This document shows, piece by piece, positions 1 through 54,160 of a DNA stretch of 54,160 nucleotides (positions are counted from its first letter, which is position 1; each line of letters opens with the position of its first letter). A program made the translations under genes and the position numbers. The stretch is from the IMG/VR virus record IMGVR_UViG_3300028191_000002, positions 1 to 54,160 of that record. One strand, 5' to 3'. Under the pieces are notes generated by a model. That model did not search any database and had not been told where the DNA came from. It saw only the letters and a list, made by a program, of their open reading frames with translations. Source of the stretch: a virus (taxonomy: Duplodnaviria; Caudoviricetes).

Positions 1-127
1 AGTAACGGATGATTACCTGGAAAAGTTATATCTGGTTTATCTTGAGAAAACGGATTCAAGCTCTAATATTGAAACATTGAATGAACAGTTTGAAGCAGCA
101 GTAAAAGAAGTTACTGATGATGCTTGG
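1..127. repeat. Terminal direct repeat, copy 1 (127 bp); indicates a circular or complete contig
   Basis: Identical to 54034-54160 and lies inside a continuous reading frame, so most likely an assembly overlap. Confidence 0.95.
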
Positions 128-3100
128 CTATTTCAGATGCCTGAAAAGCTGGTTGCAGATGAGACAGAACCCGAATTCAATTTAGAACCCAAAGCAGATA
201 TACCTGAACCAGATATACCACCAGTCCTAAACGCGAAGAAGATGACCTCTGCCGATACTGAAGAAATGCCAATGGACGAGGTGTATGATGTAGGGACGTT
301 GATAGGTTTGACTGAGGAACAGAAAAGTCTATTAGCCCACGTAAAGTATGCAAGTGTTACCAAAAATAAAGTGTCACCAATGGCAGTAGTTTTGGATGAC
401 AGCGGATATTCAACATATGAAGTGGATAACGATGTCAAAAAAGTAATCGCCGGACATAAAGATATCACCCTGCTAATGGCGCACGAAGGGGAGTATAGTT
501 TTTTCGGAGGCGAGGTAGATAAGTTAGCCACTGTTCCAGAGTTCAAGACAGCTTATCTTATAACCAACAACGGTACGATATTCAAACTTGAGAAGGATCC
601 GGAGCACAACCTCCTAACACCAGATTTTGCGAAGGGGTTAACCTCAGGTATAGATTATGCAAACACACTAAATCTTAATGAAGGTATGGATTCTGAAGAA
701 GCCTATTTCCAAGCAAGTGTCTCAACCTTCGATGTTTATGGTATTAAGTTGACCAAAGAATACGACCCCGTCGCAATACTTCAGGAAAAGGAGGATCAGC
801 GGGCATTGGACGAATACCACATAAGTCGGGCAGATCTCGGTATTGTACCCCGGGACAAACTGAATTTCACAGAGCATTTCAAAGAAAAAGCGGATAGTAA
901 CTTTAAGCAGTTTGTAGCACGAAAGGTTAGTAGTAATAAAACGTTCGATGGAAAAGACGTGAGCGATACTTATGACCAGTTAACTGGTGTCTATAAGCAA
1001 TCTAATATCCCCGGACTTCATGCAGCAGTAGATAACTATGTAGGTAGTAACTATCAGCGAATAAACGGCTCCTTACGTTCCGACCCATCCGTCTTCTACC
1101 GCAAGTTACGAAATGCACATACCGGATTAAGTGAAGATGAAATTCAAGCGACTATCCAAGAAACGTATGCTTTGCGAGATAAGGTAACCACTGCCATTGC
1201 CAAGCAGCCACCCACGACTGAAGATATGGTGGTATATCGTGGTGTTCGGGTAGCATTAGAGGATATGAAAAAGAAGCCGGCAGCGTTAGACGATTTAGTA
1301 ACCCTTCCTGGTTTTACATCATCATCTTTGGAAGCATCAGTTGCGAATAGCTTTATGAACAGTGGGAATATCATTTATCAGATAGATATCCCGAAAGGTA
1401 GTACAGGGGTCCTATCGGGATTCAATTCTTCTGAAAAAGAAGTCTTGTTCCAGAATAACTCATCATTCCAGGTTGTGGAGACCCAGAAGTCTGGTGCAAG
1501 AACCATAGTCCACCTACGCTACGTGTCTCCTGATTCGCCAGCAGGCAAGATAGAATCCTTGAATATAAGCGATAAAGATAAGCAGGAACTCATTACAAGA
1601 TCTTACAACAACTCCTTTACTTTTGACAAAACGATGTCAGTGAAAGGAGAGACAGTATGGAAAGCTTTTCAAAGTGGGAAGTTAGATTCCGGCGGTGCTA
1701 CGGATGCCTTTGGACGGTATTTTACAGACATCTATCCTGCCGCAACTACTCCAATTTCTCAATACTCACCTCGGACAAAGGCAGCGTTGTTTGATATGCC
1801 AAACCACGACTACTACTATCGTAACAAGCTGATGAGGATGGGCGAAGAATTGTTTGTCCAGGAAATGAAGGTTAACCCCGGGGATGACCCGAATCCTTTG
1901 AAAAGGTTACAATCGTTCAAGGAATACAATGCCACTGTACTCCAAGCATTCGACGAATGTAAGCCCACAACGGAAGAGTTGATAGTCTTTCGTGGTGAGG
2001 AGTTTGATGCAACCGTCCTGCACCCTGAGATTATCCCGATTGGGAATACCTATTCGCCAGCAGGTATAGTTAACACTTCTTTGGATGCAGGCTGGGCAAA
2101 GAACTTTGAAAGAGATGGTGGAACTGTTTATCAGATAGATATCCCGAAAGGTAGTACAGGAGTAGTTGGTGGTTTCAATGAAATGGAGACAGAAATATTA
2201 CTGAATGATAAGTCAACATTCCTGGTAAAGGATTATAAGGTAGTAAATGGTAAGATTAGTTTGGTTCACCTCCAATACATCGATCCAAAGCAGATAAAGG
2301 AAATCGACGATGCTATGGTAGGACCAAGGTTATCTGGCGAAGCACAAACGGCCTTCCGATGGAAACAGCAAGAAGCAGACCGAAAACAGATGAAAGAGAA
2401 TTTGACAAAGCATCTTGAGAAGGTAGCAGTAGAGCAGGCACGGGAGAAGGCAGAAATACAAGCGGAAGTTAGCCGCCAGATATGGGTAGTTGAAGATTCT
2501 TGGGATAACCCGATAGGACAGTTTAGTACACCAGAAGCGGCAGATTACTTTATAAAACATGGAACGAACTTGACAAATGTTAGGCAGAAGATATATGTTA
2601 AAGATACAGCTATCGATCCGGCGACAGACTTCTGGACGAAGGATATGGATGGGAAGAAGACAGTAACGCCTTTAACCGTAGTGGAAGAAGTGCAGAAGGA
2701 TACTACCACCAAACCAAAAATAACTCCACCCAATGATTATGTTTGGCAAGTACTGGACGCGGAATCGGGTGAAGCTATAGGACAGTTTCTTACTATGCCA
2801 GAAGCACAGCACTATGCAGCAATAAACGGTACTTCTACTATCAATATCAATAAGCTTAAGATTATTGGTGGGGTAAAACCGGATATAGATTTATGGCATA
2901 TGGACGAAGATGGAATGATAGTCTCGAAGACACCGAAGACACCGAAGAAGAACGAGCCAGAAAAGAAAGGCATAGTTGAGAAGCACATCGCCCTTCCGCA
3001 GGACTTTGTGTGGGCAGTGAAAGATGAGAACGCCGGTTCCATCGTTGGTCAGTTTGAGGAAAAGTGGGAAGCAGAAGCATACATAAAGCAGATGGACATA

Positions 3101-3196
3101 CAGGCAGTAGCAGTCAAGAAAAAGATCCCTGGTGGCATTACGCCAGCGGAAGATCTTTGGTTTGTGGACGAGACTGGTGAAACGAATATGGGATAA
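1..3196 (+). CDS. C-terminal part of MuF minor head protein fusion (starts at 52721, ~1502 aa in total): two VIP2/Alt-like ADP-ribosyltransferase domains and three C-terminal repeats
   Basis: In frame with ATG 52721 across the 127-bp overlap with no stop. ART1: VYRGV...FTSSS...SEKEVL. ART2: VFRGE...VNTSL...METEIL. Three W-x-V-x-D...GQF...D(L/F)W repeats. Confidence 0.88.
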   Translation, partial: VTDDYLEKLYLVYLEKTDSSSNIETLNEQFEAAVKEVTDDAWLFQMPEKLVADETEPEFNLEPKADIPEPDIPPVLNAKKMTSADTEEMPMDEVYDVGTLIGLTEEQKSLLAHVKYASVTKNKVSPMAVVLDDSGYSTYEVDNDVKKVIAGHKDITLLMAHEGEYSFFGGEVDKLATVPEFKTAYLITNNGTIFKLEKDPEHNLLTPDFAKGLTSGIDYANTLNLNEGMDSEEAYFQASVSTFDVYGIKLTKEYDPVAILQEKEDQRALDEYHISRADLGIVPRDKLNFTEHFKEKADSNFKQFVARKVSSNKTFDGKDVSDTYDQLTGVYKQSNIPGLHAAVDNYVGSNYQRINGSLRSDPSVFYRKLRNAHTGLSEDEIQATIQETYALRDKVTTAIAKQPPTTEDMVVYRGVRVALEDMKKKPAALDDLVTLPGFTSSSLEASVANSFMNSGNIIYQIDIPKGSTGVLSGFNSSEKEVLFQNNSSFQVVETQKSGARTIVHLRYVSPDSPAGKIESLNISDKDKQELITRSYNNSFTFDKTMSVKGETVWKAFQSGKLDSGGATDAFGRYFTDIYPAATTPISQYSPRTKAALFDMPNHDYYYRNKLMRMGEELFVQEMKVNPGDDPNPLKRLQSFKEYNATVLQAFDECKPTTEELIVFRGEEFDATVLHPEIIPIGNTYSPAGIVNTSLDAGWAKNFERDGGTVYQIDIPKGSTGVVGGFNEMETEILLNDKSTFLVKDYKVVNGKISLVHLQYIDPKQIKEIDDAMVGPRLSGEAQTAFRWKQQEADRKQMKENLTKHLEKVAVEQAREKAEIQAEVSRQIWVVEDSWDNPIGQFSTPEAADYFIKHGTNLTNVRQKIYVKDTAIDPATDFWTKDMDGKKTVTPLTVVEEVQKDTTTKPKITPPNDYVWQVLDAESGEAIGQFLTMPEAQHYAAINGTSTININKLKIIGGVKPDIDLWHMDEDGMIVSKTPKTPKKNEPEKKGIVEKHIALPQDFVWAVKDENAGSIVGQFEEKWEAEAYIKQMDIQAVAVKKKIPGGITPAEDLWFVDETGETNMG

Positions 3197-3217
3197 CTTA
3201 GTATAAAGGAAGTAACA

Positions 3218-3403
3218 ATGACTTATATAACAACGCAGGAAGTAGCAAGCAAATTAGGATGTAGTGAAGAGACGATACGTAATATGATTCACGAAGGGAA
3301 GATACCCGCCCTCCGTCTTGATAGGACATATCGGATGGACTGGTTGGAAGTTCAGAGGGCTTTATCTGTTACTACCAACACAATTAATACGGGGAGACCC
3401 TGA
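3218..3403 (+). CDS. Excisionase-family/MerR-like helix-turn-helix DNA-binding protein
   Basis: YITTQEVASKLGCSEETIRNMIHEGKIPALRL fits the HTH_17 pattern; RBS AAGGAAG. Confidence 0.8.
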   Translation: MTYITTQEVASKLGCSEETIRNMIHEGKIPALRLDRTYRMDWLEVQRALSVTTNTINTGRP

Positions 3404-3482: not shown

Positions 3483-4595
3483 ATGGCTAAAGCACTAAAC
3501 ATAGGCAGTGGATTGTTACTTTCCAATTCGGTAGACGTAGGTGTCGGAATAGGCACTATGCGTCAAGAGAACGGAGTGCCAGTTTATCGGTATAAGAAGG
3601 AAGTTATCCGTAGTGGTAAATATTTCAAGGACGCCGATAAGCTGGCATTTACTGTAACAAAGGAAGTGCTTGACCATTGGGCGTTAACCTTCAGTAAGTG
3701 GAAGAAGGGTGGGAATAAAGTGGCAGTTCCTGAAACGCACGATGGTGCTCAGGATCCGTCGAAGAACCGAGGGTGGGTAGTTGAGATGTTCCGAGAAGGA
3801 GATTCTCTATTCGCAATCATGGATTTGTATGGTGCAGACTCGCCGAAAGTCGCTGCCACCAACGACGTGTCCATCTATTCCCCGGTAGAAGTAACAGATG
3901 GTGCGGGTAACGTTTACGCCCGTCCTATTACACATATAGCATTATGTATGGATCCGGTCATTCCGGGACTATCTAAATTTGAGGCCATCGCGGCTTCTCG
4001 TAAACCTCTAAAACAGGAGTATCAAATGGATTCAAAGAAATTAGCCGGTCTCTTGGGATTATCCTTGGATGAGAAAGACACCGACGAAGAGAAGGACAAG
4101 AAAATCGAAGCATCAATCAAATCTCTGAAAGCGAGTAAGGCAGTAAAGGCTTCCGCGGAAGGTGAGGATTTGACTGAGGAAGAGAAGAAGAAACTGGCTG
4201 AGGAAAAGGCCAAGGCAGTAGCTGCTTCTATGGAGGAAGACGAAGAGAAGGAAAAGAAGGCTGTCGCCGCTTCCCGTTCTGCTGTTAATCCTATGATGTT
4301 AAGTTTGGCATCCGAAAACCGTGAGATGAAACTATCTCGTCTGGTAACGGCTGGCAAGATAACCCCAGCAGTATGTGAAAAGCTGAAAACGAAGTATGTC
4401 GATAAGGACGCCCTTACGCTTTCATTGGCTCGCGGTGGCGACGACTTTGACAGTGTCGTAAGTATGTTTGCAGAAAACGATCCAGTAGCTTTACGCGAAC
4501 AGTCGGGTCCTCAACTACTCCAACTCGGTGACCTTCTGAAGACGGGTGGAAAGAACCCACTTTTGGCGGACGCAGAGGGCAGGACAAAGAAGTAA
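3483..4595 (+). CDS. Mu gpI-like prohead protease/scaffold, with probable internal scaffold start at 4026
   Basis: Lies between MuF and decoration/capsid genes; ETH...GWV, SIYSP and HIAL..P motifs; charged coiled C-terminal half; AGGAG RBS before in-frame ATG 4026. Confidence 0.75.
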   Translation: MAKALNIGSGLLLSNSVDVGVGIGTMRQENGVPVYRYKKEVIRSGKYFKDADKLAFTVTKEVLDHWALTFSKWKKGGNKVAVPETHDGAQDPSKNRGWVVEMFREGDSLFAIMDLYGADSPKVAATNDVSIYSPVEVTDGAGNVYARPITHIALCMDPVIPGLSKFEAIAASRKPLKQEYQMDSKKLAGLLGLSLDEKDTDEEKDKKIEASIKSLKASKAVKASAEGEDLTEEEKKKLAEEKAKAVAASMEEDEEKEKKAVAASRSAVNPMMLSLASENREMKLSRLVTAGKITPAVCEKLKTKYVDKDALTLSLARGGDDFDSVVSMFAENDPVALREQSGPQLLQLGDLLKTGGKNPLLADAEGRTKK

Positions 4596-21643: not shown

Positions 21644-21781
21644 TAAGATATTAAAATATTAAAAATCTTCAGAAATAGGATTTGACTTTATCACCGAAAT
21701 CCATTATAATCTATATATATATAGCAAGAGGGTAATGGTTATCCTCAAGTAGACGAAATGAAACGAAATGAAAGGAACGAA
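21644..21781 (+). promoter_or_regulatory. Early promoter/leader cassette, copy 1 (138 bp)
   Basis: TTGACT 21682-87, N17, TATAAT 21705-10; AT-rich UP region; leader hairpin; RBS; two mismatches to copy 2. Confidence 0.9.
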
Positions 21782-22431: not shown

Positions 22432-22701
22432 ATGACAAAGAAAAAACCAGAAAATTGGATCCCACGCCGGCAACGCGATGAATTTGGTAGAAGCCCAATG
22501 TGGGTAGTAGTAGAAAAGGACACTGGCAAAGTTATGGGACAGTGGCGGCATGAGAAACGTGCCCACGATTTAGTAGAAGAGTTGGTAAGACGAAACAATG
22601 GTCCCTGGGTGGATTATCTTATCTGCCTAATGTGGTTTGAGCCAACTACACGTACTGGGGTAAGCAAGTATGCGAGGGATTGGTTATGCCAGAACCGATA
22701 G
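22432..22701 (+). CDS. Early small protein of the W-V-x-G-Q paralogue family
   Basis: MWVVVEKDTGKVMGQWRHEKRAHDLVEEL. Confidence 0.65.
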   Translation: MTKKKPENWIPRRQRDEFGRSPMWVVVEKDTGKVMGQWRHEKRAHDLVEELVRRNNGPWVDYLICLMWFEPTTRTGVSKYARDWLCQNR

Positions 22702-24362: not shown

Positions 24363-24367
24363 GCTAC

Positions 24368-24505
24368 TAAGATATTAAAATATTAAAAATCTTCAGAAAT
24401 AGGATTTGACTTTATCACCGAAATCCGTTATAATCTATATATATATAGCAAAAGGGTAATGGTTATCCTCAAGTAGACGAAATGAAACGAAATGAAAGGA
24501 ACGAA
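24368..24505 (+). promoter_or_regulatory. Early promoter/leader cassette, copy 2
   Basis: TTGACT 24406-11, N17, TATAAT 24429-34; near-identical to 21644-21781. Confidence 0.9.
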
Positions 24506-24508
24506 CTA

Positions 24509-25486
24509 ATGGCACACGAAGTAGAAATTAGAGGCGGCGGCGCAAGTATGATGTACGTCGGTGCAGAACCATGGCATGGGCTGGGAACTCAGGTTGCTAC
24601 CGAAGTAACCTCAGCAGCAGCACTAAAGGTGGCTGGTCTGGATTGGGATGTAGTAAAGAAACCAATTGGCGTTGTCTCAGATCTGAAGGTTGATGATATA
24701 CCGGTGGTTGCTCAGGTTATACCCGGGCAGTACGCTGCAATACGTCAAGACGATGGCAAGATCTTATCAATAGTTTCTGAGACCTATACCATCATCCAAA
24801 ACCGGGAACAGTTTGAATTTATGGACACCCTGGTAGGGGACGGATTGGCAATGTACCATACCGCCGGATCCTTGCGTGGAGGGAAGCAGGTCTTTTTGTT
24901 AGTTAAGCTCCCCGAGTCAATAACGATAGCAGATTGGGCAGTAGACCAATATATCCTCCTGACCAGTTCACACGATTACACAATGCCGACCAGGATCCTA
25001 TGGACACCGGTTCGAGTGGTGTGTTGGAATACCTTGAGTTTAGCACTCGATGATATGAGAAAATCCTTCAGCATTCGCCACACAGTAAATTGGAAAGAGA
25101 AGGAGCAGTTGGCAAGAGATACTTTACAACTCAGCCATATCTATTACCAGGCACTTAAGCAGAAGTTAGAATCCCTGGCACTGATAAAGATGGGCGATGC
25201 TATTCTTGAGGATATGCTTGAGAAAATGTATCCGATATCCAGTACACGGATGGAGGGTCGCATATCGGAAGTTCGGAGCACAGTCAGGGAACTGTTCTTT
25301 ACTGGAGCAGGTAATGACGGAAAGACGGGATTAGATTTTGTCAATGCCGTTGCTGAGTATCACGACCATCGCGAGTATCGTGATTCAAAGAATAGTTCTG
25401 GGGAGGACAAGCGGTTTGTCGCAGCAACCGAGGACTATTATGGTATGAAGAATTTAGCTGTTGAATTGGTCAGCGGCTTAGCATAA
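24509..25486 (+). CDS. DUF932/DUF945 (TIGR03299-like) phage/plasmid protein
   Basis: MAHE...PWHGLG...GLDW.V...Y.IIQN...TAGSL.GG...SHD...TPVRVVC.NTL...IRHT. Confidence 0.85.
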   Translation: MAHEVEIRGGGASMMYVGAEPWHGLGTQVATEVTSAAALKVAGLDWDVVKKPIGVVSDLKVDDIPVVAQVIPGQYAAIRQDDGKILSIVSETYTIIQNREQFEFMDTLVGDGLAMYHTAGSLRGGKQVFLLVKLPESITIADWAVDQYILLTSSHDYTMPTRILWTPVRVVCWNTLSLALDDMRKSFSIRHTVNWKEKEQLARDTLQLSHIYYQALKQKLESLALIKMGDAILEDMLEKMYPISSTRMEGRISEVRSTVRELFFTGAGNDGKTGLDFVNAVAEYHDHREYRDSKNSSGEDKRFVAATEDYYGMKNLAVELVSGLA

Positions 25487-42836: not shown

Positions 42837-44671
42837 TAAAGTCAGTTAGTATGACCAATTTTAAGAGCTTTAGGAAGACCCAGTCCTTTAATCTTCCAAT
42901 TGTATCTGGCTTCTTTCTTGTGTCGGGAGATAATCAGGTTGACAAAGCACTGGAAGGGAATGGTGCTGGAAAATCATCTTTCTGGGATGCCATCGCCTGG
43001 TGCTTATATGGAAAGACTGCCCGGGGATTGAAAGCATCTAACATTATCAGTTGGGGTGAATTGACAGCAGAAGTAGTTGTGCAAATAACCGCCGGAGACT
43101 TTATTTACAACATCAGCCGTACCCAGAGTCCAAATTGCTTATCCGTGAATGGAAAGACAGTAGAGCAGAAGGTAGTGGACGATTTGATTGGCATAAACTA
43201 TCTTGGCTTTATGAATGGTGTCTTAATGGGACAGTTTAATCCATTCTTCTTTGACCTGGGTCCCACCGATAAATTGGCACTGTTTTCAGATATTCTGAAT
43301 TTGGATGTCTGGGATCGTTTTGCGGAGAAGGCAAAGCTTCTACTGGCGGACGTAACACGGAATTCACAGTTATGTCAATCACGATTAGACGGAAGTATTC
43401 GAGCATTGGGTCTTCTTGCAGATAGTGAGAAGTTAGCTTCTGAAAGAAAGGATGCTTGGCAAGAAAGCATTAACCAACAGTTAGAGCAGAAGAAAGCAGT
43501 TGTAGCAGGGTTAGAAGCTGAACTCAAACCAGTACTGATAACCCTGGCTGGATTGGAGCAAAAAGCAACCAGACAACCACAACCGCCGGATTTGTCAATT
43601 CGAGAAGAGGAGCTACAGAATGCTCGGGAGCTTTTTATGGATGCTGCTCAAAAGGTAACCATGTTAAGTGCCCAGATAAATACTGTTGATTCCGATATAT
43701 GTAAGATAGAAAAGATGTTGGAGACAAGGGTATGTACCTACTGTGGAAACAAGATAAAGGTAGATCATTTAGCAGCAGAGGCAGAAATACTGTTTACTAA
43801 CGCGGATGACTTAGATGCGAAAATGATTCTTGCTCGGTCGGATAAGGCAATATATGCGGAGGCCATTAAAACAGCGGAAAAGAGGCTGTGCACTGAGAAG
43901 CTTGTCTGGGACAAGGAATTAGCAGTCTACAACGAACAGGTGGACAGACCGCTTCGTCAACTACGGCAGGAAGTAAGTAGCAAGAAGAATACTATTGCGG
44001 TGCATCAGGAATACCTGGACAGTGTGAAGAAGCAGACGAATCCATATATTGTGGAGCTGAAAGCCCTAAGCCAGAAGGTTGCAGATACTCAGGCGGAGAA
44101 GAGCACGTACGAGGATGAGAAGACTCAGTATGACCAGAAGATAAGCGGTTATCAGTACTGGACAAAGGCATTCCGCGATATACGATTGTGGATCGTTAGT
44201 TCCTGTCTAAGCGAGTTTGAAATAGAAGTAAACAATACTCTTGTCCAGGTTGGTTTAGAGGGTTGGAAAATTGAGTTTGACGTTGAGAAGGAGAATAAGT
44301 CGGGTGGTATATCGAAAGGCTTTACTATCTTGGTCAAAGCTCCGTTTACTAATACTGCCATTCCGTGGGAAAGCTGGTCAGGTGGGGAAACTCAGCGACT
44401 GAGGTTGGCCGGGTCAATTGGTCTGGCTAATCTTATTCGGTCAAGAGTCCGCTTACCTTTTAACCTGGAAATATGGGACGAACCAACGCAGCATCTTTCT
44501 GTTCAAGGTATCGAGGATATGTTAAACTGGTTTTCATATCGCAGTCAGAAAGAAGGAAAGCAGATATACCTTCTCGACCACCATAGTCTGGACAAGGGCG
44601 TTTTTGACGGTGAGATACATATAGTCAAGGATGAGAATGGTAGCTCTATAACGACCGTTTTAAGTGCCTAA
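42833..44671 (+). CDS. SbcC/Rad50/gp46-like ABC ATPase
   Basis: NFKSF, NGAGKSS, CTYC zinc hook, WSGGE, WDEP, DH. Confidence 0.92.
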   Translation: MIKSVSMTNFKSFRKTQSFNLPIVSGFFLVSGDNQVDKALEGNGAGKSSFWDAIAWCLYGKTARGLKASNIISWGELTAEVVVQITAGDFIYNISRTQSPNCLSVNGKTVEQKVVDDLIGINYLGFMNGVLMGQFNPFFFDLGPTDKLALFSDILNLDVWDRFAEKAKLLLADVTRNSQLCQSRLDGSIRALGLLADSEKLASERKDAWQESINQQLEQKKAVVAGLEAELKPVLITLAGLEQKATRQPQPPDLSIREEELQNARELFMDAAQKVTMLSAQINTVDSDICKIEKMLETRVCTYCGNKIKVDHLAAEAEILFTNADDLDAKMILARSDKAIYAEAIKTAEKRLCTEKLVWDKELAVYNEQVDRPLRQLRQEVSSKKNTIAVHQEYLDSVKKQTNPYIVELKALSQKVADTQAEKSTYEDEKTQYDQKISGYQYWTKAFRDIRLWIVSSCLSEFEIEVNNTLVQVGLEGWKIEFDVEKENKSGGISKGFTILVKAPFTNTAIPWESWSGGETQRLRLAGSIGLANLIRSRVRLPFNLEIWDEPTQHLSVQGIEDMLNWFSYRSQKEGKQIYLLDHHSLDKGVFDGEIHIVKDENGSSITTVLSA

Positions 44672-44708
44672 GATAATAAAAGATTTAACGAATCCGAGTG
44701 CATTTCAT

Positions 44709-44803
44709 TTGACTTTATCGTCGAAATCCGTTATAATCTATATATAGAAATAGGATAATGGTTATCCTCAAGTAGACGAAATGAAACGAAATGAAAGGAA
44801 CGA
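44709..44803 (+). promoter_or_regulatory. Early promoter/leader cassette, copy 3
   Basis: TTGACT 44709-14, N17, TATAAT 44732-37; same leader taatggttatcctcaagtagacgaaatgaaacgaaatgaaaggaacga. Confidence 0.9.
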
Positions 44804-45070
44804 ATGATGGCAAGATTAGCAAAGTTACAGAAGAACAATAAGAGATGGCAAGTTTTTTCAAAAGAGACCGGCGAAATTTTTGGTCAGTATATGCAGCATA
44901 AGAGATGTATAACTCTTCGGGATGAGCTGGTTAAGTTTGGCATTGTTGAGAAGAAATCAGAACTTCTTATCGCCAGTTGGCCAGTATCGACGTATGATGC
45001 CAGTTCTGGTATTTGTAGCAAGTATTATAAGATTCAGATGAGGGATTTACGCCAGAAAGCAGGTGTATGA
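44804..45070 (+). CDS. Early small protein, W-V-x-G-Q paralogue family
   Basis: RWQVFSKETGEIFGQY. Confidence 0.7.
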   Translation: MMARLAKLQKNNKRWQVFSKETGEIFGQYMQHKRCITLRDELVKFGIVEKKSELLIASWPVSTYDASSGICSKYYKIQMRDLRQKAGV

Positions 45071-45252
45071 TGGCAAAGTTGATGAAAGAAGGCTGGTGTG
45101 TGGAAGACGATCCAAGCGGGGAAACCGTGGCACAGTTTTGGAGAAAAGAAGACGCAGAAGCGTTTGTGAGGCGGCAGCATCCAGACCATGTAAGTAACTT
45201 CAATCTCGAATTTGTGAAGCAGGAGCCAGTAGTGGCGGGAGAAGGTGTATGA
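45067..45252 (+). CDS. Early small protein, W-V-x-G-Q paralogue family (closest to MuF repeats)
   Basis: WCVEDDPSGETVAQFWRKEDAEAFV. Confidence 0.7.
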   Translation: MMAKLMKEGWCVEDDPSGETVAQFWRKEDAEAFVRRQHPDHVSNFNLEFVKQEPVVAGEGV

Positions 45253-45539
45253 TGGCAAAGTTAGCAGAGGGAAAGATGGCACGGGGTTGGATGATGTGGG
45301 CAGTGGTTAACCCGGAAAGTGGTGAAATCTTTGGTAAGTATCGTCAGTACAGGAGGTGTCTGGATCTTATAGCAGAGATTCGTGAACTTGGTTCGATAGA
45401 TACTCGGGAACCGTTGGTTATTCATTTGGTGACCTGTTCTGATTATCGGACGCGGAAGGCTGGTTTATGTGGGCAGGATTTCCGTCGTTTAATGAAGGTT
45501 TTGCGAGGGGACGCTAAACTACAGAAAGCAGGTGTATGA
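45249..45539 (+). CDS. Early small protein, W-V-x-G-Q paralogue family
   Basis: WAVVNPESGEIFGKY. Confidence 0.7.
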   Translation: MMAKLAEGKMARGWMMWAVVNPESGEIFGKYRQYRRCLDLIAEIRELGSIDTREPLVIHLVTCSDYRTRKAGLCGQDFRRLMKVLRGDAKLQKAGV

Positions 45540-45859
45540 TGGCAAAGCAGTCTAAAATACTTATTGGGATGATTACTGAAAGTTTTCAGGTGTCTGATGA
45601 AGAAGTCGTACTGTTCACAGAGCAGCATATGGATGGGTACGTTGGTGAGGATATGGTATCTTACATGGCGAATCTTGTCAACTTGGAAAGCAATACCGTG
45701 GAGCAGATGAACCTTGGTATGCTGAAGTCCTTTTATCCAGAAGTCGAAGGCAGGCGGGACAGAATCGCTTACTGGCGGTGGATGGGGGAGTTTACTGTGG
45801 AGGGGCAGCAAAGAAGAGCTGAGAATGAGCGTGCGGATGTAGAAAGCAGGATACGCTGA
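45536..45859 (+). CDS. Early hypothetical protein
   Basis: Shares the MMAK junction repeat. Confidence 0.65.
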   Translation: MMAKQSKILIGMITESFQVSDEEVVLFTEQHMDGYVGEDMVSYMANLVNLESNTVEQMNLGMLKSFYPEVEGRRDRIAYWRWMGEFTVEGQQRRAENERADVESRIR

Positions 45860-46083
45860 TGTCCCCAGAATTCACAAGAATGGTGAAGGAAATGATTCGT
45901 GAGATGTCAGGCTGTAGGTATTGTTACCGTATCTACATTAATGGTCTCTATGAAAAGTTGGTGACCAGATGTAGATACGTATTACCGGTAGAAGGGCAAG
46001 CAGCCTGTGTTGATTATGTACTAGAATTTTTTAAGAAAGGAAATTGCGATGATAAGAAAAAAGTTAATTCAGTTACTCACTGA
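45859..46083 (+). CDS. Hypothetical protein
   Basis: TGATG coupling. Confidence 0.5.
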   Translation: MSPEFTRMVKEMIREMSGCRYCYRIYINGLYEKLVTRCRYVLPVEGQAACVDYVLEFFKKGNCDDKKKVNSVTH

Positions 46084-46339
46084 CCTTCCTGAGTATGAGC
46101 TTCGTAAGGCAGATGAGATGTTCAAACTGGGACAGCTGGTTCGGACGTTAGGCGGTGGTTGGTTGTTCTATCGTGACCCGAGATGGATGGTTCAGGTAAA
46201 CGATTTTCTGATTCTCTGGAATGGGAATGATAGTGGATATGAAGTTCGTTTGTTAGGCAATGTAATACCGCCGGAAGAGTCGAAGTATTACACAGACCTT
46301 AAGTTACTAAAGCAGGCAGTATGTCCTGAACAACTTTAA
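46049..46339 (+). CDS. Hypothetical protein
   Basis: AAAGGA RBS. Confidence 0.55.
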   Translation: MIRKKLIQLLTDLPEYELRKADEMFKLGQLVRTLGGGWLFYRDPRWMVQVNDFLILWNGNDSGYEVRLLGNVIPPEESKYYTDLKLLKQAVCPEQL

Positions 46340-46351
46340 CTGGAGAATGAA

Positions 46352-46672
46352 ATGGCAAAGGATAAAAAAGAGTTTTCGCCCATAGATTGGGATAAACCAG
46401 GTATGGAACGGTTTACGGACGACTTTATGCAAGGAGCAGCAGTTTTCAACGCCAACGCCCACCCGCGAACGAATCTTATGGTAAAGATTACTGGGGACGA
46501 TGGAACGTTGGATGGTGAGGAAGGCAACGCTTACGCTATAATGGCGAAGGTGCGGCAGGTACTAACGGACAGGGGTTTGGGTATAGCAGTAGCCCAGTTT
46601 CTTAAGGAAGCCCAGTCCGGCGATTATGAGCATCTTCTTGAAGTAGTTCACGATTGGGTGGAGGTGCAGTAA
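46352..46672 (+). CDS. Conserved-looking phage hypothetical protein (GNA.AIM...SGDY..LL type)
   Basis: GGAG RBS; motif recalled from small phage/plasmid proteins. Confidence 0.6.
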   Translation: MAKDKKEFSPIDWDKPGMERFTDDFMQGAAVFNANAHPRTNLMVKITGDDGTLDGEEGNAYAIMAKVRQVLTDRGLGIAVAQFLKEAQSGDYEHLLEVVHDWVEVQ

Positions 46673-49831: not shown

Positions 49832-51250
49832 ATGATTGATTTACCAGACAATTGGACACCACTAAACTACCACCCAACCCAGTTCAAGTTGTGGACAACT
49901 AAGGCGAGATTCGTAGCTGTCCCAGCGGGGCGGGGTTCGGGGAAAACTGAATTGGCGAGAAGAAGGCTGGTTAGAATGTTACCAGTAAAGAAGGCATGGG
50001 GCAATCCAATGTACTTCTACGGAGCCCCGACCTACGGACAAGCCAAACGTATTGCCTGGGATCCGATTGTTCGTCTTATACCGAAGGAATGGATAGAAAG
50101 CATTTCAGCCTCGGAACTGTTGATAAGGACGGTATTCGGAAGTGAGTTACATATAGTTGGACTTGACAAACCACAACGTGTAGAGGGTAATCAGTGGGAC
50201 GGTTGTGTGTTAGACGAAAGCTGCGATCTCAAACCGAAAACGTTTGACCTGAGCATACTACCGGCACTTACGTGGAGAAACGGATGGTGTTGGAGGATAG
50301 GTGTTCCGAAGAGGTTTGGAATAGGAGCAGTTGAGTTCCATGAGTTCTACGATGCTGCGTGCAGAGGTGATGTCCCAGACGCGGAAGGTTTTACGTGGCC
50401 ATCATCAGACATCGTTCCAAAGGCATCCTTAGACTACGCCCGCTCCGTGATGGACGAGCGTGATTTTAATGAACAGTTCAACGCCAGTTGGCAGACAGCG
50501 GGTGGTGGTGTCTTCCATGCCTTTGACAAGGACAGGAATGTAAGGCCAGTAGCCTACGACCCACACAAGACAATCTTAGTTGGTTCTGACTTCAACGTCG
50601 ATCCAATGGCTTGGGTCTTATGTCACCGCAGAGCGAATGTAATAGAAGTGTTTGATGAACTCTGGTTGAGGAATACAAATACCCAGGCAACCCTCCGCAT
50701 ATTAGCAGAACGATACCCTGACCACCAGGGTGGGTGGGAGTTTTATGGGGATGCTACTGGACGAGCAAGAAAGACATCCGCTACATCAAGTGATATACAG
50801 CAGATATCTAACTACCCGCAGTTCCTCAGGCAGGGAAGGACAATCTTATACTTATACTCCAATCCCCTGGTAGGTGATAGATTCGCAGCAACCAATGCAA
50901 GGATATGCAGTGCGGACGGACAAAGAAACCTGTTCGTTGACCCGAGATGTAAGCATCTGATATTCGACTTGCAAAGCAGGGTTTACAAACCAGGCACACG
51001 AGAAGTGAATGACGTGGGCGATATAGGGCATATAACTGATGCCATGGGCTACATTGTCTACAAGCTCTTCCCAATCCGAATAAAGGTGGAAGTAAACGAA
51101 GAGTATGAAGTATACGTTACAGACCCAGCCAGCCAAGCCCATGCAAGGCCAGCAGATAGATTCTTAAAACAGAAGGCAGCAGTAGCTGCTTCTATTAACC
51201 ATAGTGAGAAGATGCCAGCAACCTCAATTAGAAGGGAACGGTTAAAATGA
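49832..51250 (+). CDS. terL: Terminase large subunit
   Basis: AGRGSGKT, APTYGQAK, LDE, GSDFN..P, GDATG, HITDA.GY. Confidence 0.92.
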   Translation: MIDLPDNWTPLNYHPTQFKLWTTKARFVAVPAGRGSGKTELARRRLVRMLPVKKAWGNPMYFYGAPTYGQAKRIAWDPIVRLIPKEWIESISASELLIRTVFGSELHIVGLDKPQRVEGNQWDGCVLDESCDLKPKTFDLSILPALTWRNGWCWRIGVPKRFGIGAVEFHEFYDAACRGDVPDAEGFTWPSSDIVPKASLDYARSVMDERDFNEQFNASWQTAGGGVFHAFDKDRNVRPVAYDPHKTILVGSDFNVDPMAWVLCHRRANVIEVFDELWLRNTNTQATLRILAERYPDHQGGWEFYGDATGRARKTSATSSDIQQISNYPQFLRQGRTILYLYSNPLVGDRFAATNARICSADGQRNLFVDPRCKHLIFDLQSRVYKPGTREVNDVGDIGHITDAMGYIVYKLFPIRIKVEVNEEYEVYVTDPASQAHARPADRFLKQKAAVAASINHSEKMPATSIRRERLK

Positions 51251-52653
51251 TAGGTACAGAGATAAAGATACCGCAGATAGATGCCAGGGTAAAGATTGGT
51301 GAGATAACTCCTCCGCAGGTCGACTATATCATTAGCACACAAGAGCTGATGAAAACGATGGCCACTGGGGCATCCTACAAGCTATACCGGGAAATCAGGC
51401 AGGATCCAACAGTAGCCTTGGCAAGGGCACTAATCTTGGCTACTGCGTTAAGTGGTGATTGGTCAGTAGAGTCCGAGAAGGACGTACCGGACGATGCCGT
51501 AGAAATGATAAACAAATGCCTTCTACCACTCCGTGAACAGATTATGGAGTCCGCTTTGAGTGGTGGTATTGACTTCGGATGGCAGGGCTTTGAGAAATGC
51601 TTTACCGTCGTGGATGGGATGATAGTATTAAGCAAGCTCAAACCACTACTCCACGAAATGACAGAGGTCTTGGTCATAACTGAGACAGGAGAATACGCCG
51701 GGTATAAGCAGTCACCATACTCGGGCAACGAGGTGTTCTTAGATGTGAATAAGTGTCTGCACATAGCATTTCGAATAGAAGGCACGAATTGGTATGGCAC
51801 AAGTCTTCTTGAGAATGTAAGGAAGACGATGGAGAAATACGACAGAGCCGAGTTCTCAGCCGCCGAATATGATAAGAAAGTGGCGGGTAGTCACTTTATT
51901 GTTTACTACCCATCCGGGACATCTATTATCGGTGGGGTAGTTACTTCCAACGCAACCGTAGCATCGCAGCTCCTGGGAGCCCTGGAAAACAGTGGGTCCA
52001 TTACTGTGCCGCGAACCGTGATAGAATACGTTGACCAGTTGAATAACTCGGAAAATGTAGGGTGGAAGATTGAGCTACTCGAAGACAATGGTGGACGCCA
52101 ACCAACCTTCGTCGAAAGATTAAAATATCTTGATGCATTGAAGGTAAGGGCATTGTTAGTGCCAGAACGAGCTATCTTGGAAGCTGAGTTCGGAACCAAG
52201 GCAGAGGCAGGTGAGCACGGCGATATGGCACTTAAGAATATCCAGTTGACTGACCGCCAGATAACCCGGATGGTCAATCAGCAGGTGGTAGACCAACTAC
52301 TAGCACTTAATTACGGAGAAGACTTTAGAGGTAAAGTGTGGCTACAAGCAGCACCGTTGATAGATGAGCAGATTCAATACCTCCGAAGCATCTATACCGC
52401 CCTCGTAACTAACCCACAGGGGTTCGCAGAAGAGTTTATGACAATAGACACGGACTCCATCAAAGACAAACTTCAGATACCAAAGCTGGACGTAGTAGCT
52501 GAGCAGGGCTCCCAACTACCACCATTGGACTCCGCAGAGCCTCTAAACGAGGGAATTCCAGAGGACGAAGAGGTTCAATTGTCAAAATTTGCGAAAGTGG
52601 TAGGATTTTGGAAGAAACCGACCAGGGCTGCGGCGGGCAGGACAAAGAAGTAA
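51247..52653 (+). CDS. Portal protein (Mu gp29/DUF935-like)
   Basis: Follows TerL; FGW..FEK, YG.SLL, G..A.A..H, L..LNYG. Confidence 0.8.
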   Translation: MIGTEIKIPQIDARVKIGEITPPQVDYIISTQELMKTMATGASYKLYREIRQDPTVALARALILATALSGDWSVESEKDVPDDAVEMINKCLLPLREQIMESALSGGIDFGWQGFEKCFTVVDGMIVLSKLKPLLHEMTEVLVITETGEYAGYKQSPYSGNEVFLDVNKCLHIAFRIEGTNWYGTSLLENVRKTMEKYDRAEFSAAEYDKKVAGSHFIVYYPSGTSIIGGVVTSNATVASQLLGALENSGSITVPRTVIEYVDQLNNSENVGWKIELLEDNGGRQPTFVERLKYLDALKVRALLVPERAILEAEFGTKAEAGEHGDMALKNIQLTDRQITRMVNQQVVDQLLALNYGEDFRGKVWLQAAPLIDEQIQYLRSIYTALVTNPQGFAEEFMTIDTDSIKDKLQIPKLDVVAEQGSQLPPLDSAEPLNEGIPEDEEVQLSKFAKVVGFWKKPTRAAAGRTKK

Positions 52654-52709
52654 CCTATCCAAAGACATAGGCTACCAGTAGATCCTCAAGCAGGGCTAAA
52701 AGATGAAAG
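52650..52709 (+). repeat. Intergenic element copy F
   Basis: 60 bp identical to reverse complement of 20112-20171. Confidence 0.92.
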
Positions 52710-52720
52710 GGGTTTTTGCT

Positions 52721-54160
52721 ATGGCAGACGGAAAATATGCGGTTAGTATGGAAGAACGGGCACTCGCGATACAAATGGCGAATGAGACGTATGTTATTGA
52801 GCACCGTGGAGCAGAAGCCGCGGCAAAGGTCGCTGCCAGGGCAAGGGCGAAAGTTAGGACAGCCTTCAAGCGTGGCCAATACTATCCAGGCATCATAACC
52901 GCAGAATTGATGAAAGCCAAGGACGAGCTCTTGGAAGCCACGATAGGTGCACATCTTCTTGGGTTGAAGAGGAGGTTAGACACTGCCAACCTACAGTTGT
53001 CTGCCTCCACACCACAAGTCCAGTACTTGAGGAAGTTACTTAATCTGAAGAAGGCTGAGCTGGACAAGCTTAAGCAAGTCTATGGAGACCAGATTGACCT
53101 GGCACTTATCAAGACAGGGGCAATGGCAGAGGGAAAGGTTAACACTGCCATCTACCAGTCACTAAACAAGGGTGAGCATATTCGAGATGCCACCAAGCGA
53201 TTAGAAAAGGCATTCGACGCATCAGGAATCAGTCCAACCAACTCATATCAGATAGAAGGCCTCTTCCGCACTCAGGCACAGATGGCATACAGCGGAGCGA
53301 AGTGGCAAGCTAACCAGGAAGGGTATGTTGGGGAGTTCCTTTGGGGTTATAAGTATGTAACCGTCGGCGATGACCGAGTAAGAATGACACACAGAATGTT
53401 AGATGGCGTTATCTTGCAAAAGAACCACCCAAAGTGGGACAAGATATTCCCGCCGAACGGGTGGGGTTGTAGGTGCCAGGTTATTGAGATATTCCATCCA
53501 ATGCAGGAACAGTTACCACCAGAATCCTATACTGACAAAAATGGTGTCCAGAAGTATGTTGGTGCGGACGAAGGTTTTGACTTCAACCCGGGACAGCTAC
53601 TGCACTATGCCACCAAACCGATTACCAAGACAGTAGCCGATATTCATCAGCAGGTAGCGGAGGCGATAAAGCAAAAGAAGCTTGATATTGAGGCGTTGAA
53701 AGAAAAGCTGGCCGCCGCAGAGGCGAAGATAGTTGAGAAGGAGAAAGTTTGGAATACCTTAGCAGATAAACCCACCAGCCCAACTTTGACGGAAGAAGAG
53801 TTGATGAAAGTAACAGGACAGTATACTACCCACGTTGGCAAGTCACTATACAATGTGTATGGAGAAGAAGGAAAGGTGTCCTTTGCAGCAGATGGGTTAT
53901 TCGTAGTATACCATGAGAATGGAACACCACCAACGCTTCAGGAAATGCAAAAGATAGTTATGGAAGGTGGTGATGCTTTATTAGTAATGGGTAAGGATGG
54001 GTCAGTCTCAAGCCTAAACCTCGATCCGTCGGTAGTAACGGATGATTACCTGGAAAAGTTATATCTGGTTTATCTTGAGAAAACGGATTCAAGCTCTAAT
54101 ATTGAAACATTGAATGAACAGTTTGAAGCAGCAGTAAAAGAAGTTACTGATGATGCTTGG
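52721..54160 (+). CDS. N-terminal part of MuF (SPP1 gp7/Mu F) minor head protein; continues at position 128 to 3196
   Basis: Own translation: FRTQAQMAYS...YVTVGDDRVRMTHRMLDG...HPKWDKIFPPNGWGCRCQV...GFDFNPG; absent from ORF track because it runs off the end. Confidence 0.92.
   Translation, partial: MADGKYAVSMEERALAIQMANETYVIEHRGAEAAAKVAARARAKVRTAFKRGQYYPGIITAELMKAKDELLEATIGAHLLGLKRRLDTANLQLSASTPQVQYLRKLLNLKKAELDKLKQVYGDQIDLALIKTGAMAEGKVNTAIYQSLNKGEHIRDATKRLEKAFDASGISPTNSYQIEGLFRTQAQMAYSGAKWQANQEGYVGEFLWGYKYVTVGDDRVRMTHRMLDGVILQKNHPKWDKIFPPNGWGCRCQVIEIFHPMQEQLPPESYTDKNGVQKYVGADEGFDFNPGQLLHYATKPITKTVADIHQQVAEAIKQKKLDIEALKEKLAAAEAKIVEKEKVWNTLADKPTSPTLTEEELMKVTGQYTTHVGKSLYNVYGEEGKVSFAADGLFVVYHENGTPPTLQEMQKIVMEGGDALLVMGKDGSVSSLNLDPSVVTDDYLEKLYLVYLEKTDSSSNIETLNEQFEAAVKEVTDDAW
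54034..54160. repeat. Terminal direct repeat, copy 2
   Basis: Identical to 1-127. Confidence 0.95.

Follow-up and report, generated by a model that had tools for sequence, protein, structure and literature searches.

The IMG/VR record IMGVR_UViG_3300028191_000002 is the entire genome of a phage (Duplodnaviria; Caudoviricetes), and the window analyzed here, whose positions are used throughout, covers the whole record of 54,160 bases. This report concerns a small module of about 30 amino acids (aa) that occurs three times at the C-terminal end of a large MuF-ADP-ribosyltransferase (ART) protein and recurs, at graded levels of certainty, in four small open reading frames (ORFs) of the same genome, which are named here by their start positions (44804, 45067, 45249, and 22432). 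The large protein has to be read across the ends of the record. An exact 127-bp terminal direct repeat occupies positions 1-127 and 54034-54160, and ORFs 52703-54160 (open at its 3′ end) and 2-3196 (open at its 5′ end) overlap in frame through this repeat to give a protein of 1508 aa. Because the MuF ORF runs in frame across the 127-bp repeat, the contig is a circular-type assembly with a unit genome of 54,033 bp. Nearly all genes lie on the + strand, as do all of the MuF, ART, module, small ORF, and promoter features given below.

The 5′ part of the MuF gene (52703..54160) runs off the contig end and resumes at window position 2. It encodes a Phage_Mu_F domain at about 53135-53485 (residues 145-261), which matches PF04233 at E = 1.8e-17 and 64.5 bits, above the cut-off of 29.6 bits, and the gene lies beside the portal gene; the protein thus belongs to the MuF head protein family. 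The 3′ part (2..3196, 1064 aa) consists of a spacer, ART domain 1, a further spacer, ART domain 2, a short predicted coil, and the three module repeats. ART domain 1 (ADPrib_exo_Tox/ART, 1022..1519, or 992-1531 on wider limits) scores 61.2 bits with PF03496 over residues 341-496 and 27.9 bits with PF01129 (cut-offs of 23.4 and 22.3 bits, respectively), and contains the strings YRG, FTSSS, and EKE. ART domain 2 (1844..2401) is a paralog of the first (37% identity over 117 aa, E = 2e-25); it contains FRG, NTS, and ETE, the PF03496 match to the protein comes in two stretches, and the pairs YRG/FRG, TSS/NTS, and EKE/ETE align between the two domains. We take these strings to be the Arg, Ser-x-Ser, and Glu-x-Glu motifs of the R-S-E type ARTs, and judging from both the profiles and the motif strings, the protein is a predicted ADP-ribosyltransferase of this type. 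The MuF-ART identity given to it in the original prediction is therefore well founded, with two ART domains in place. Because the two ARTs are paralogous and the module is present three times, the protein is, as read from its sequence, duplicated at two levels.

The last 239 residues of the protein (window 2477-3193) form a tail of three repeats of about 65 aa, which are joined by Lys/Pro/Thr-rich linkers. R1 (2474..2671, core 2477-2584) and R2 (2735..2932, core 2738-2845) are 66 aa long with isoelectric points (pI) of 5.1 and 4.4, and R3 (3002..3193, core 3005-3112) is 64 aa long with a pI of 4.25. Their mutual identity is 31-40% over about 60 aa in local BLASTP alignments and 28-35% over the whole alignment. 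A second, short Trp hairpin, D-[LF]-W-x-x-D-x-x-G, closes each repeat (2641-2671, 2902-2932, and 3163-3193); it echoes the first, W-x-V-x-D-x-x-G, and suggests an internal pseudo-duplication within the 65-aa unit.

The four free ORFs, at 44804-45070, 45067-45252, 45249-45539, and 22432-22701, fall into two classes. The product of 45067 (61 aa, pI 4.8, core 45088-45195) is acidic like the repeats and has a strand-strand-helix-strand arrangement that lacks the last hairpin of the MuF repeat, so that the second Trp hairpin is missing from it. The other three are basic paralogs of one another: 44804 (88 aa, pI 9.85, core 44840-44947), 45249 (96 aa, pI 9.7, core 45291-45398), and 22432 (89 aa, pI 9.75, core 22495-22602). 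Identity between 44804 and 45249 is 36% along the whole protein, and 22432 shares 38-43% with both over about 30 aa. Overall, the repeats and 45067 have pI values of 4.25-5.07, and the three paralogs have values of 9.72-9.85.

The original prediction had aligned the three repeats with these four ORFs by eye, and the strings that it quoted from the tail are found at 2477-3193. The four ORFs had thus been chosen for the very similarity in question. We examined it with hidden Markov models (HMMs) in both directions, over the 467 six-frame ORFs of at least 30 aa in this genome. An HMM of just the three MuF repeats found 45067 as its best non-self match (E = 1.9e-5, 19.5 bits), followed by 22432 (E = 0.036, 9.0 bits), 44804 (E = 0.072, 8.1 bits), and 45249 (E = 0.24, 6.4 bits), and the fifth non-self match stood at E = 0.94. 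In the reverse direction, an HMM built from 44804, 45249, and 22432 found MuF as its best non-self match (E = 1.5e-4, about 16.5 bits overall, 8.1 bits for the best single stretch). Because the three repeats, and likewise the three paralogs, are not independent observations, the control consisted of shuffling the alignment columns, which keeps composition and conservation and destroys order. None of 250 shuffled paralog profiles reached the observed score of ~16.4 bits on MuF (null maximum 3.9), and among 1500 shuffled repeat profiles, not one scored as high on any small ORF as the true profile did; the summed score of the three paralogs was 23.5 bits vs. a null maximum of 11.4 (1500 shuffles). 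For 45067, one shuffle came to 19.2 vs. the observed 19.5 bits, and therefore composition contributes to its score.

Trimmed to 36 residues each, the seven copies can be aligned with just one gap, of one residue in R1, and share a core of 29 columns. W3, V5, G11, G15, and Q16 are common to them, as are hydrophobic residues at 13-14 and 26-27, an aromatic one at 17, and a small one at 23. When the genome was searched with a profile of all seven, no eighth copy came up, the next match (E = 0.064) lying in an overlapping alternative frame. These comparisons confirm at the sequence level that the module is shared between the tail and the small ORFs, and the length of about 30 aa first proposed for it is a fair one. 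The four ORFs are, however, not equivalent. 45067 agrees with each repeat at 9-11 of 28-29 core positions (31-38%), just as often as the repeats agree among themselves (9-11), and it is 41% identical to R3 over 27 aa by BLASTP; on this evidence it is firmly a sibling of the tail repeats. The basic paralogs have 11-14 of 29 core positions identical among themselves and 5-6 of 29 identical to 45067, and we regard 44804, 45249, and 22432 as probable, more distant cousins of the repeats.

Structure models were compared for one member of each class. The AlphaFold2 model of R2, for which the repeats and 45067 were aligned in four rows, reaches a mean predicted local distance difference test score (pLDDT) of 82 and shows strand 2-8, strand 14-18, helix 21-31, strand 36-42, a short helix, and two short strands. 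The model of 45249, made from a separate three-row alignment of the paralogs, has a pLDDT of 64 overall and of 71-85 over residues 11-60, with strand 15-20, strand 27-31, helix 34-47, strand 57-62, and helix 73-94. Both models thus follow the same order, strand-strand-helix-strand, and in each of them the first strand begins with the conserved Trp. As a proxy for superposition, both were run with VIA-align against 48,161 PDB chains, and the two result lists have 10 of 50 listed chains in common with overlapping ranges (e.g., 4e6z_A and 8xqw_Q). This shows a like arrangement in the models but, the arrangement being common, not shared descent. The original prediction had staked the relationship on significant profile or structural similarity between repeats and small ORFs. 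The profile similarity is there, and the element order is the same in the R2 and 45249 models; the basic ORFs make the weaker part of the case, each giving a low score when taken singly. A complex prediction of R2 with 45249 gave scores of 0.15 and 0.05 vs. a mark of 0.32 and was run without controls, and it is no evidence either way.

Among the BFVD models, the top rows for the R2 model are mostly small uncharacterized phage proteins with the same core, the strongest of them 43-61 aa long (template modeling score, TM, 0.45-0.87 by target; root mean square deviation 1.3-3.5; 44-54 columns). As far as models can tell, the module thus falls into a structural class often met with in small phage ORFs. 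In the PDB, Foldseek listed the GYF domain structures 3k3v and 3fma_D at E = 0.7-1.3, TM 0.37, and 19-20% identity; these are not among the VIA-align rows with Z of at least 2, and there is no Pfam match to this family. The GYF domain has a strand-strand-helix-strand-strand fold with the signature W-x-Y ... G-P-F ... G-Y-F.

Searches of family collections with the tail and the four ORFs gave nothing above cut-off in Pfam, where only DUF2188, NDUS4, EutA, and DUF6826 appeared below threshold, and no match in NCBIfam. In PHROGs, phrog_10621 (E = 0.0032), phrog_2070 (E = 0.012), phrog_6742 (E = 0.069), and phrog_16074 (E = 0.081), all of unknown function, stayed below cut-off. When the genome was scanned with PF09954, phrog_10621, and phrog_6742, one copy matched each, at 11.9-14.1 bits. 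DUF2188 (PF09954) is a W-x-V hairpin followed by an F-x-T-x-x-E-A helix cap. We rejected it as the family of the module: only R3 among the seven copies matches, at 12.8-14.0 bits vs. a cut-off of 22 and over profile positions 8-38 of 62, and the same loose search was also positive in 12 of 14 control genomes. DUF7336 (PF24024) was rejected as well, having no sequence match in the whole genome at E up to 10 (cut-off 25 bits) and only weak structural rows.

Sequence searches of the PDB listed 2i02_A for the tail (E = 0.11), NosL for module profile A2 (E = 0.062), and MarA for the paralog profile, all of which we judged to be chance or local motif resemblance. The last of these matches concerns the basic core (44840-44947 and its counterparts in the two other paralogs), which resembles the MarA segment F-K-K-E-T-G ... 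G-Q-Y-I-R-x-R-K at 14.6 bits and E = 0.23 in a PDB profile search; the matched segment is the recognition helix plus the linker helix. These ORFs lack the rest of the AraC-type domain and are modeled there as a hairpin, and a relationship to MarA was rejected.

No relative of the MuF tail was found among proteins of 585-1862 aa, and none of the ART region (residues 320-800) at E of 0.001 or less among 8000 scored candidates. With the paralog profile, 3 of 14 candidates from a large protein collection passed, all of them the window's own proteins. Module profile A2 had two matches in a representative library of 1.84 billion proteins, a search that needs about 37 bits and would miss cousins as distant as the basic paralogs are from the repeats. 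One was the genome's own 45067; the other, a protein with four RNase H1 N-terminal domains, matches only on an F-x-T-x-E-E-A-D-A-F-V helix cap and was rejected. The ESM Atlas had no usable match for the tail and only leads below 0.9 for 45249, and scans of contigs with the tail, 45249, or profile A2 found no relatives. We found no published description of this module; the supplementary domain tables of PMC5512222 and PMC9503650 lie outside this search and could list such a domain.

The free copies lie 9-20 kb from MuF on the circular map, behind sites which the original prediction had called strong promoters and which are indeed near-consensus. A sigma-70-like match, TTGACT-17-TATAAT (11 of 12 positions), lies at 44709-44737, upstream of the gene array 44804-45859, and 44804, 45067, and 45249 are the first three genes behind it, with 45067 between two basic paralog genes. 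The same match (11 of 12) at 21682-21710 lies upstream of 21784, 22110, and 22432, of which the last has its own GAGGA ribosome-binding site. Because of these host-type promoter matches, we infer that the small genes would be expressed early. The 21682 site is inside a 144-nt cassette that is repeated at 24365-24508, with a further TTGACT-17-TATAAT copy at 24406. The gene behind this third copy of the promoter (24482-25486) encodes a DUF932 protein (E = 3.8e-45).

A 26-nt junction repeat (45053-45078, 45235-45260, and 45522-45547; two copies identical and the third 81%) recurs in the four-gene array 44804-45859, where it provides the ribosome-binding site together with the stop (..GV*) and the following start (MMAK..). 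Because the C-terminus of 45067 falls within this junction repeat, the free copy may have been shortened by junction-mediated recombination. The sole public run that contains the genome is a lake water metagenome (DNA), possibly its source, and no RNA run was listed for it; of the contigs of that run placed on 44500-46500, one spans the array, and no variant joints were seen.

The large gene itself sits in the head module. The terminase and portal genes (49832-52653) precede it, with a portal-like gene at 51247-52653 directly upstream of the MuF ORF at 52703, and a Mu-like_Pro (Mu-like prophage I protein) gene at 3483 is a further neighbor. Searches of 50,697 deposited phage records by blastn and tblastn, with head region, early array, tail, and portal as queries, found no relative. 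Related phages (L001-L004) were retrieved via the portal protein at 42-53% identity, and the homologs in L001, L002, and L004 confirm the head module. L001 and L003, which are the same, have a 666-aa MuF whose C-terminus differs and which lacks ART, L002 has a MuF of 279 aa with no cargo, and L004 has no MuF after the portal. Because the MuF of the relatives ends in another C-terminus, is bare, or is absent, the lineage is seen to vary in its MuF cargo, a variability also reported for MuF toxins and polyvalent proteins. The module profiles had no match in any ORF of these four relatives.

The ORF right after MuF in our genome (3218-3403) encodes an HTH_17/MerR-like protein (E = 2.8e-10). Because a like ORF also follows the L001 MuF, which has a different cargo, this gene is conserved and not cargo-specific. 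In L001 it sits between MuF and the homolog of the Mu-like_Pro gene, an unusual site for a DNA-binding regulator. The C-terminal part of the 666-aa MuF of L001 (1135-3135, identical in L003) contains an HEYGH string and, by eye, looks like a metallopeptidase. Next comes a 79-aa ORF (3137-3376) that matches no Pfam family and makes with this MuF a candidate toxin-immunity pair; the HTH gene comes after this ORF.

The original prediction held that no named system has this layout, which was too strong. Iyer, Burroughs, Anand, de Souza, and Aravind (2017) described "polyvalent proteins," which are delivered with the virion, are found in phages as well as in conjugative elements, and include MuF fusions; their domains are also known as solo proteins of phages (PMC5512222). 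ART is the commonest enzyme domain in such proteins, with ARTs of the Alt/VIP2 type often fused to MuF, and the domains PBECR, 2H, and a kinase are also found solo in phages, sometimes near the polyvalent gene (PMC5512222; PMC9503650). Our protein has the same plan: a single 1508-aa ORF, situated between the portal and Mu-like_Pro genes, joins a MuF head domain to several effector domains, here two ARTs and three modules, and packaging and injection are presumed for it as for them (PMC5512222; PMC9503650). In contrast to the domains of those proteins, the module fits no described domain, is predicted to be non-catalytic, and stands in triplicate at the extreme C-terminus, with solo copies in putative early operons 9-20 kb away; this arrangement is found in one genome.

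The protein is also like the MuF polymorphic toxins (Jamet et al., 2017; PMC5576092) and the Bxa-Bsi-BAH system of a Bacteroides stercoris prophage (Alexei et al., 2024; PMC11699363) in its N-terminal MuF, its variable toxin (here ART), and the presence of small candidate partner proteins. In those systems, the immunity gene is immediately downstream and unrelated in sequence to the toxin, whereas here HTH_17 is downstream, the small proteins resemble the tail of the toxin protein itself, and the toxin domain is not C-terminal. In phage T4, the head-packaged ART Alt is injected with the DNA, and ModA and ModB, made later, act on the same host machinery (PMC5512222; PMC9503650). What is staged in T4 is the catalytic ART domain itself, whereas here it would be a non-catalytic module of about 30 aa; our protein and Alt were compared at the level of the Pfam ART family, which they share. 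In element order and small size, the module further resembles small phage proteins in BFVD (including a DUF7336 protein), T7 Gp2 (Z = 2.5-2.7), and the anti-CRISPRs AcrIIC5 (Z = 3.1, 29% identity over 45 residues) and AcrIC9 (Z = 3.0). For folds of this size all of these scores, those from BFVD included, amount to noise. Gp2, AcrIIC5, and AcrIC9 are absent from the rows of the PDB profile search, and no function can be transferred from any of these proteins. New here are thus the module, its presence in three copies behind two ARTs, and the free copies in putative early operons; the MuF polyvalent effector architecture and solo phage versions of the domains of polyvalent proteins were already known (PMC5512222; PMC9503650).

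The explanation that we favor, to which we give an even chance of being right as a whole, is that a lineage-specific mini-domain was multiplied within one phage genome, would now form a family of seven members in two subfamilies, and is in part attached to a "polyvalent" MuF effector. Its core would be a Trp-led β-hairpin, W-x-V-x5-G-x3-G-Q-aromatic, then a helix in which a small residue precedes a hydrophobic one by three positions, and then a third strand. The acidic subfamily A would comprise the three tandem repeats of about 65 aa that end MuF-ART-ART and the free 61-aa early protein 45067. The basic subfamily B (44804, 45249, and 22432) would have kept the hairpin-helix-strand core and added a C-terminal helix of its own. 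The origin is most simply imagined as duplication and domain shuffling in the genome, with a small early gene captured into the variable MuF C-terminus, or the reverse.

By analogy with other MuF fusions and with T4 Alt, MuF-ART-ART would be packed in the head, leave it with the DNA, and ADP-ribosylate host proteins at time zero. As to the module, it could be a small protein-binding adaptor that recruits to a host factor, a proposal that we put forward tentatively and in which our confidence falls somewhat short of even. Its triple copy on the ART would then provide multivalent recruitment to that factor, 45067, made from a host-type early promoter, would engage the same partner without modifying it, and the basic copies would offer the same scaffold to other partners. 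We think it quite unlikely that the module is used in two steps, with the injected acidic copies docking the double ART on a host factor that handles DNA or RNA at time zero, and with 45067 and its basic cousins, transcribed by the host polymerase within minutes, taking over that interaction, competing with it, or switching it off.

Several points weigh against so wide a family, and most of them concern the basic paralogs. These have only 4-8 of 28-29 core positions (14-28%) in common with the repeats, each taken singly matches the repeats weakly (6-9 bits, E = 0.036-0.24), and a local hhalign comparison of the basic group with the repeats aligned 14 columns at a probability of 10-16% (P = 0.0016-0.0032). 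Their charge is opposite to that of the repeats, and the second halves differ, with a long C-terminal helix in the paralogs and a second hairpin in the repeats. The paralog profile scores MarA (14.6 bits) above its best single MuF stretch (8.1 bits), the MarA value coming from a far larger search. Because the strand-strand-helix-strand arrangement is common, also in small phage proteins, a shared fold is weak evidence of common descent; both models were built from alignments of 3-4 rows taken from this genome alone, no PDB match exceeded Z = 4.5 (best Z of 3.5 for R2 and 4.5 for 45249, and 3.2 in a further look), and Foldseek with both models found nothing at E of 0.001 or less in either the PDB or BFVD. 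The searches found no homolog outside this genome. The promoter sites are consensus matches only.

Taken at their strongest, the points on the basic paralogs would mean that 45067 alone is related to the MuF repeats and that 44804, 45249, and 22432 form an unrelated family whose Trp hairpin, G-Q-aromatic string, and helix are convergent or generic. We consider this unlikely, though it has to be taken seriously. The shuffled profiles never reached the observed scores (23.5 bits vs. a null maximum of 11.4 in 1500 shuffles, and 0 of 250 in reverse), the match is reciprocal and the best non-self one in both directions, and ten property-conserved positions align with the one residue in R1 as the sole gap. 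Moreover, 45067 is flanked by two basic paralog genes in one array with common junction repeats, and the R2 and 45249 models have 10 of 50 listed PDB chains in common. The two-stage system of the original prediction, in which the tail aims an injected ART and later free copies serve as decoys, inhibitors, or shields of the phage itself, draws on the presence of the module both in a presumably virion-delivered ART protein and in genes behind host-type promoters, on the closeness of 45067, acidic like the repeats and as near to them as they are to each other, and on the staged use of ARTs in T4, where Alt is injected and ModA and ModB are made later (PMC5512222; PMC9503650). It fits poorly with the basic charge and divergence of three of the four free copies, which are unlikely mimics of acidic tail modules and hardly simple decoys of the tail; no binding partner is in evidence, and the arrangement was found in no other genome. 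We therefore hold this system to be very unlikely. A role of the immunity type would turn the module toward the ARTs themselves, the tail acting as a built-in inhibitor both in the producing cell and in the capsid and 45067 switching the injected enzyme off in the new host. Its model is Bxa, a MuF-type prophage ART toxin that is neutralized by the small binding protein Bsi and a hydrolase (PMC11699363), and since no cargo-specific small ORF follows MuF here, the next gene being HTH_17, any immunity function would lie elsewhere. A contact between module and ART is, however, not in evidence, three modules for two ARTs follow no obvious logic, a lytic-type genome has little need for immunity late in infection, and the basic paralogs are left unexplained; we give this role very little credence. 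The family of two subfamilies with a polyvalent MuF effector thus remains the reading that we prefer.

The weight of these findings is limited to one genome from one lake-water sample, with no relatives that have the module, and the roles given to the module are proposals. Within these bounds, they touch on the traffic of domains between the variable MuF C-terminus and arrays of small early genes, and they add an orphan mini-domain family of seven members to the pool of candidate host-takeover or anti-defense binders. If the two-step use were true, it would be a delivered-then-expressed adaptor system of a kind not described for any phage. Little is known of how ARTs delivered with the virion reach their substrates in the first seconds after infection begins, and a compact, repeated, predicted non-catalytic tail may offer a handle on this question. 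With 45067 in a putative early operon, the phage would itself provide a natural experiment, in which the module occurs with and without the enzyme.

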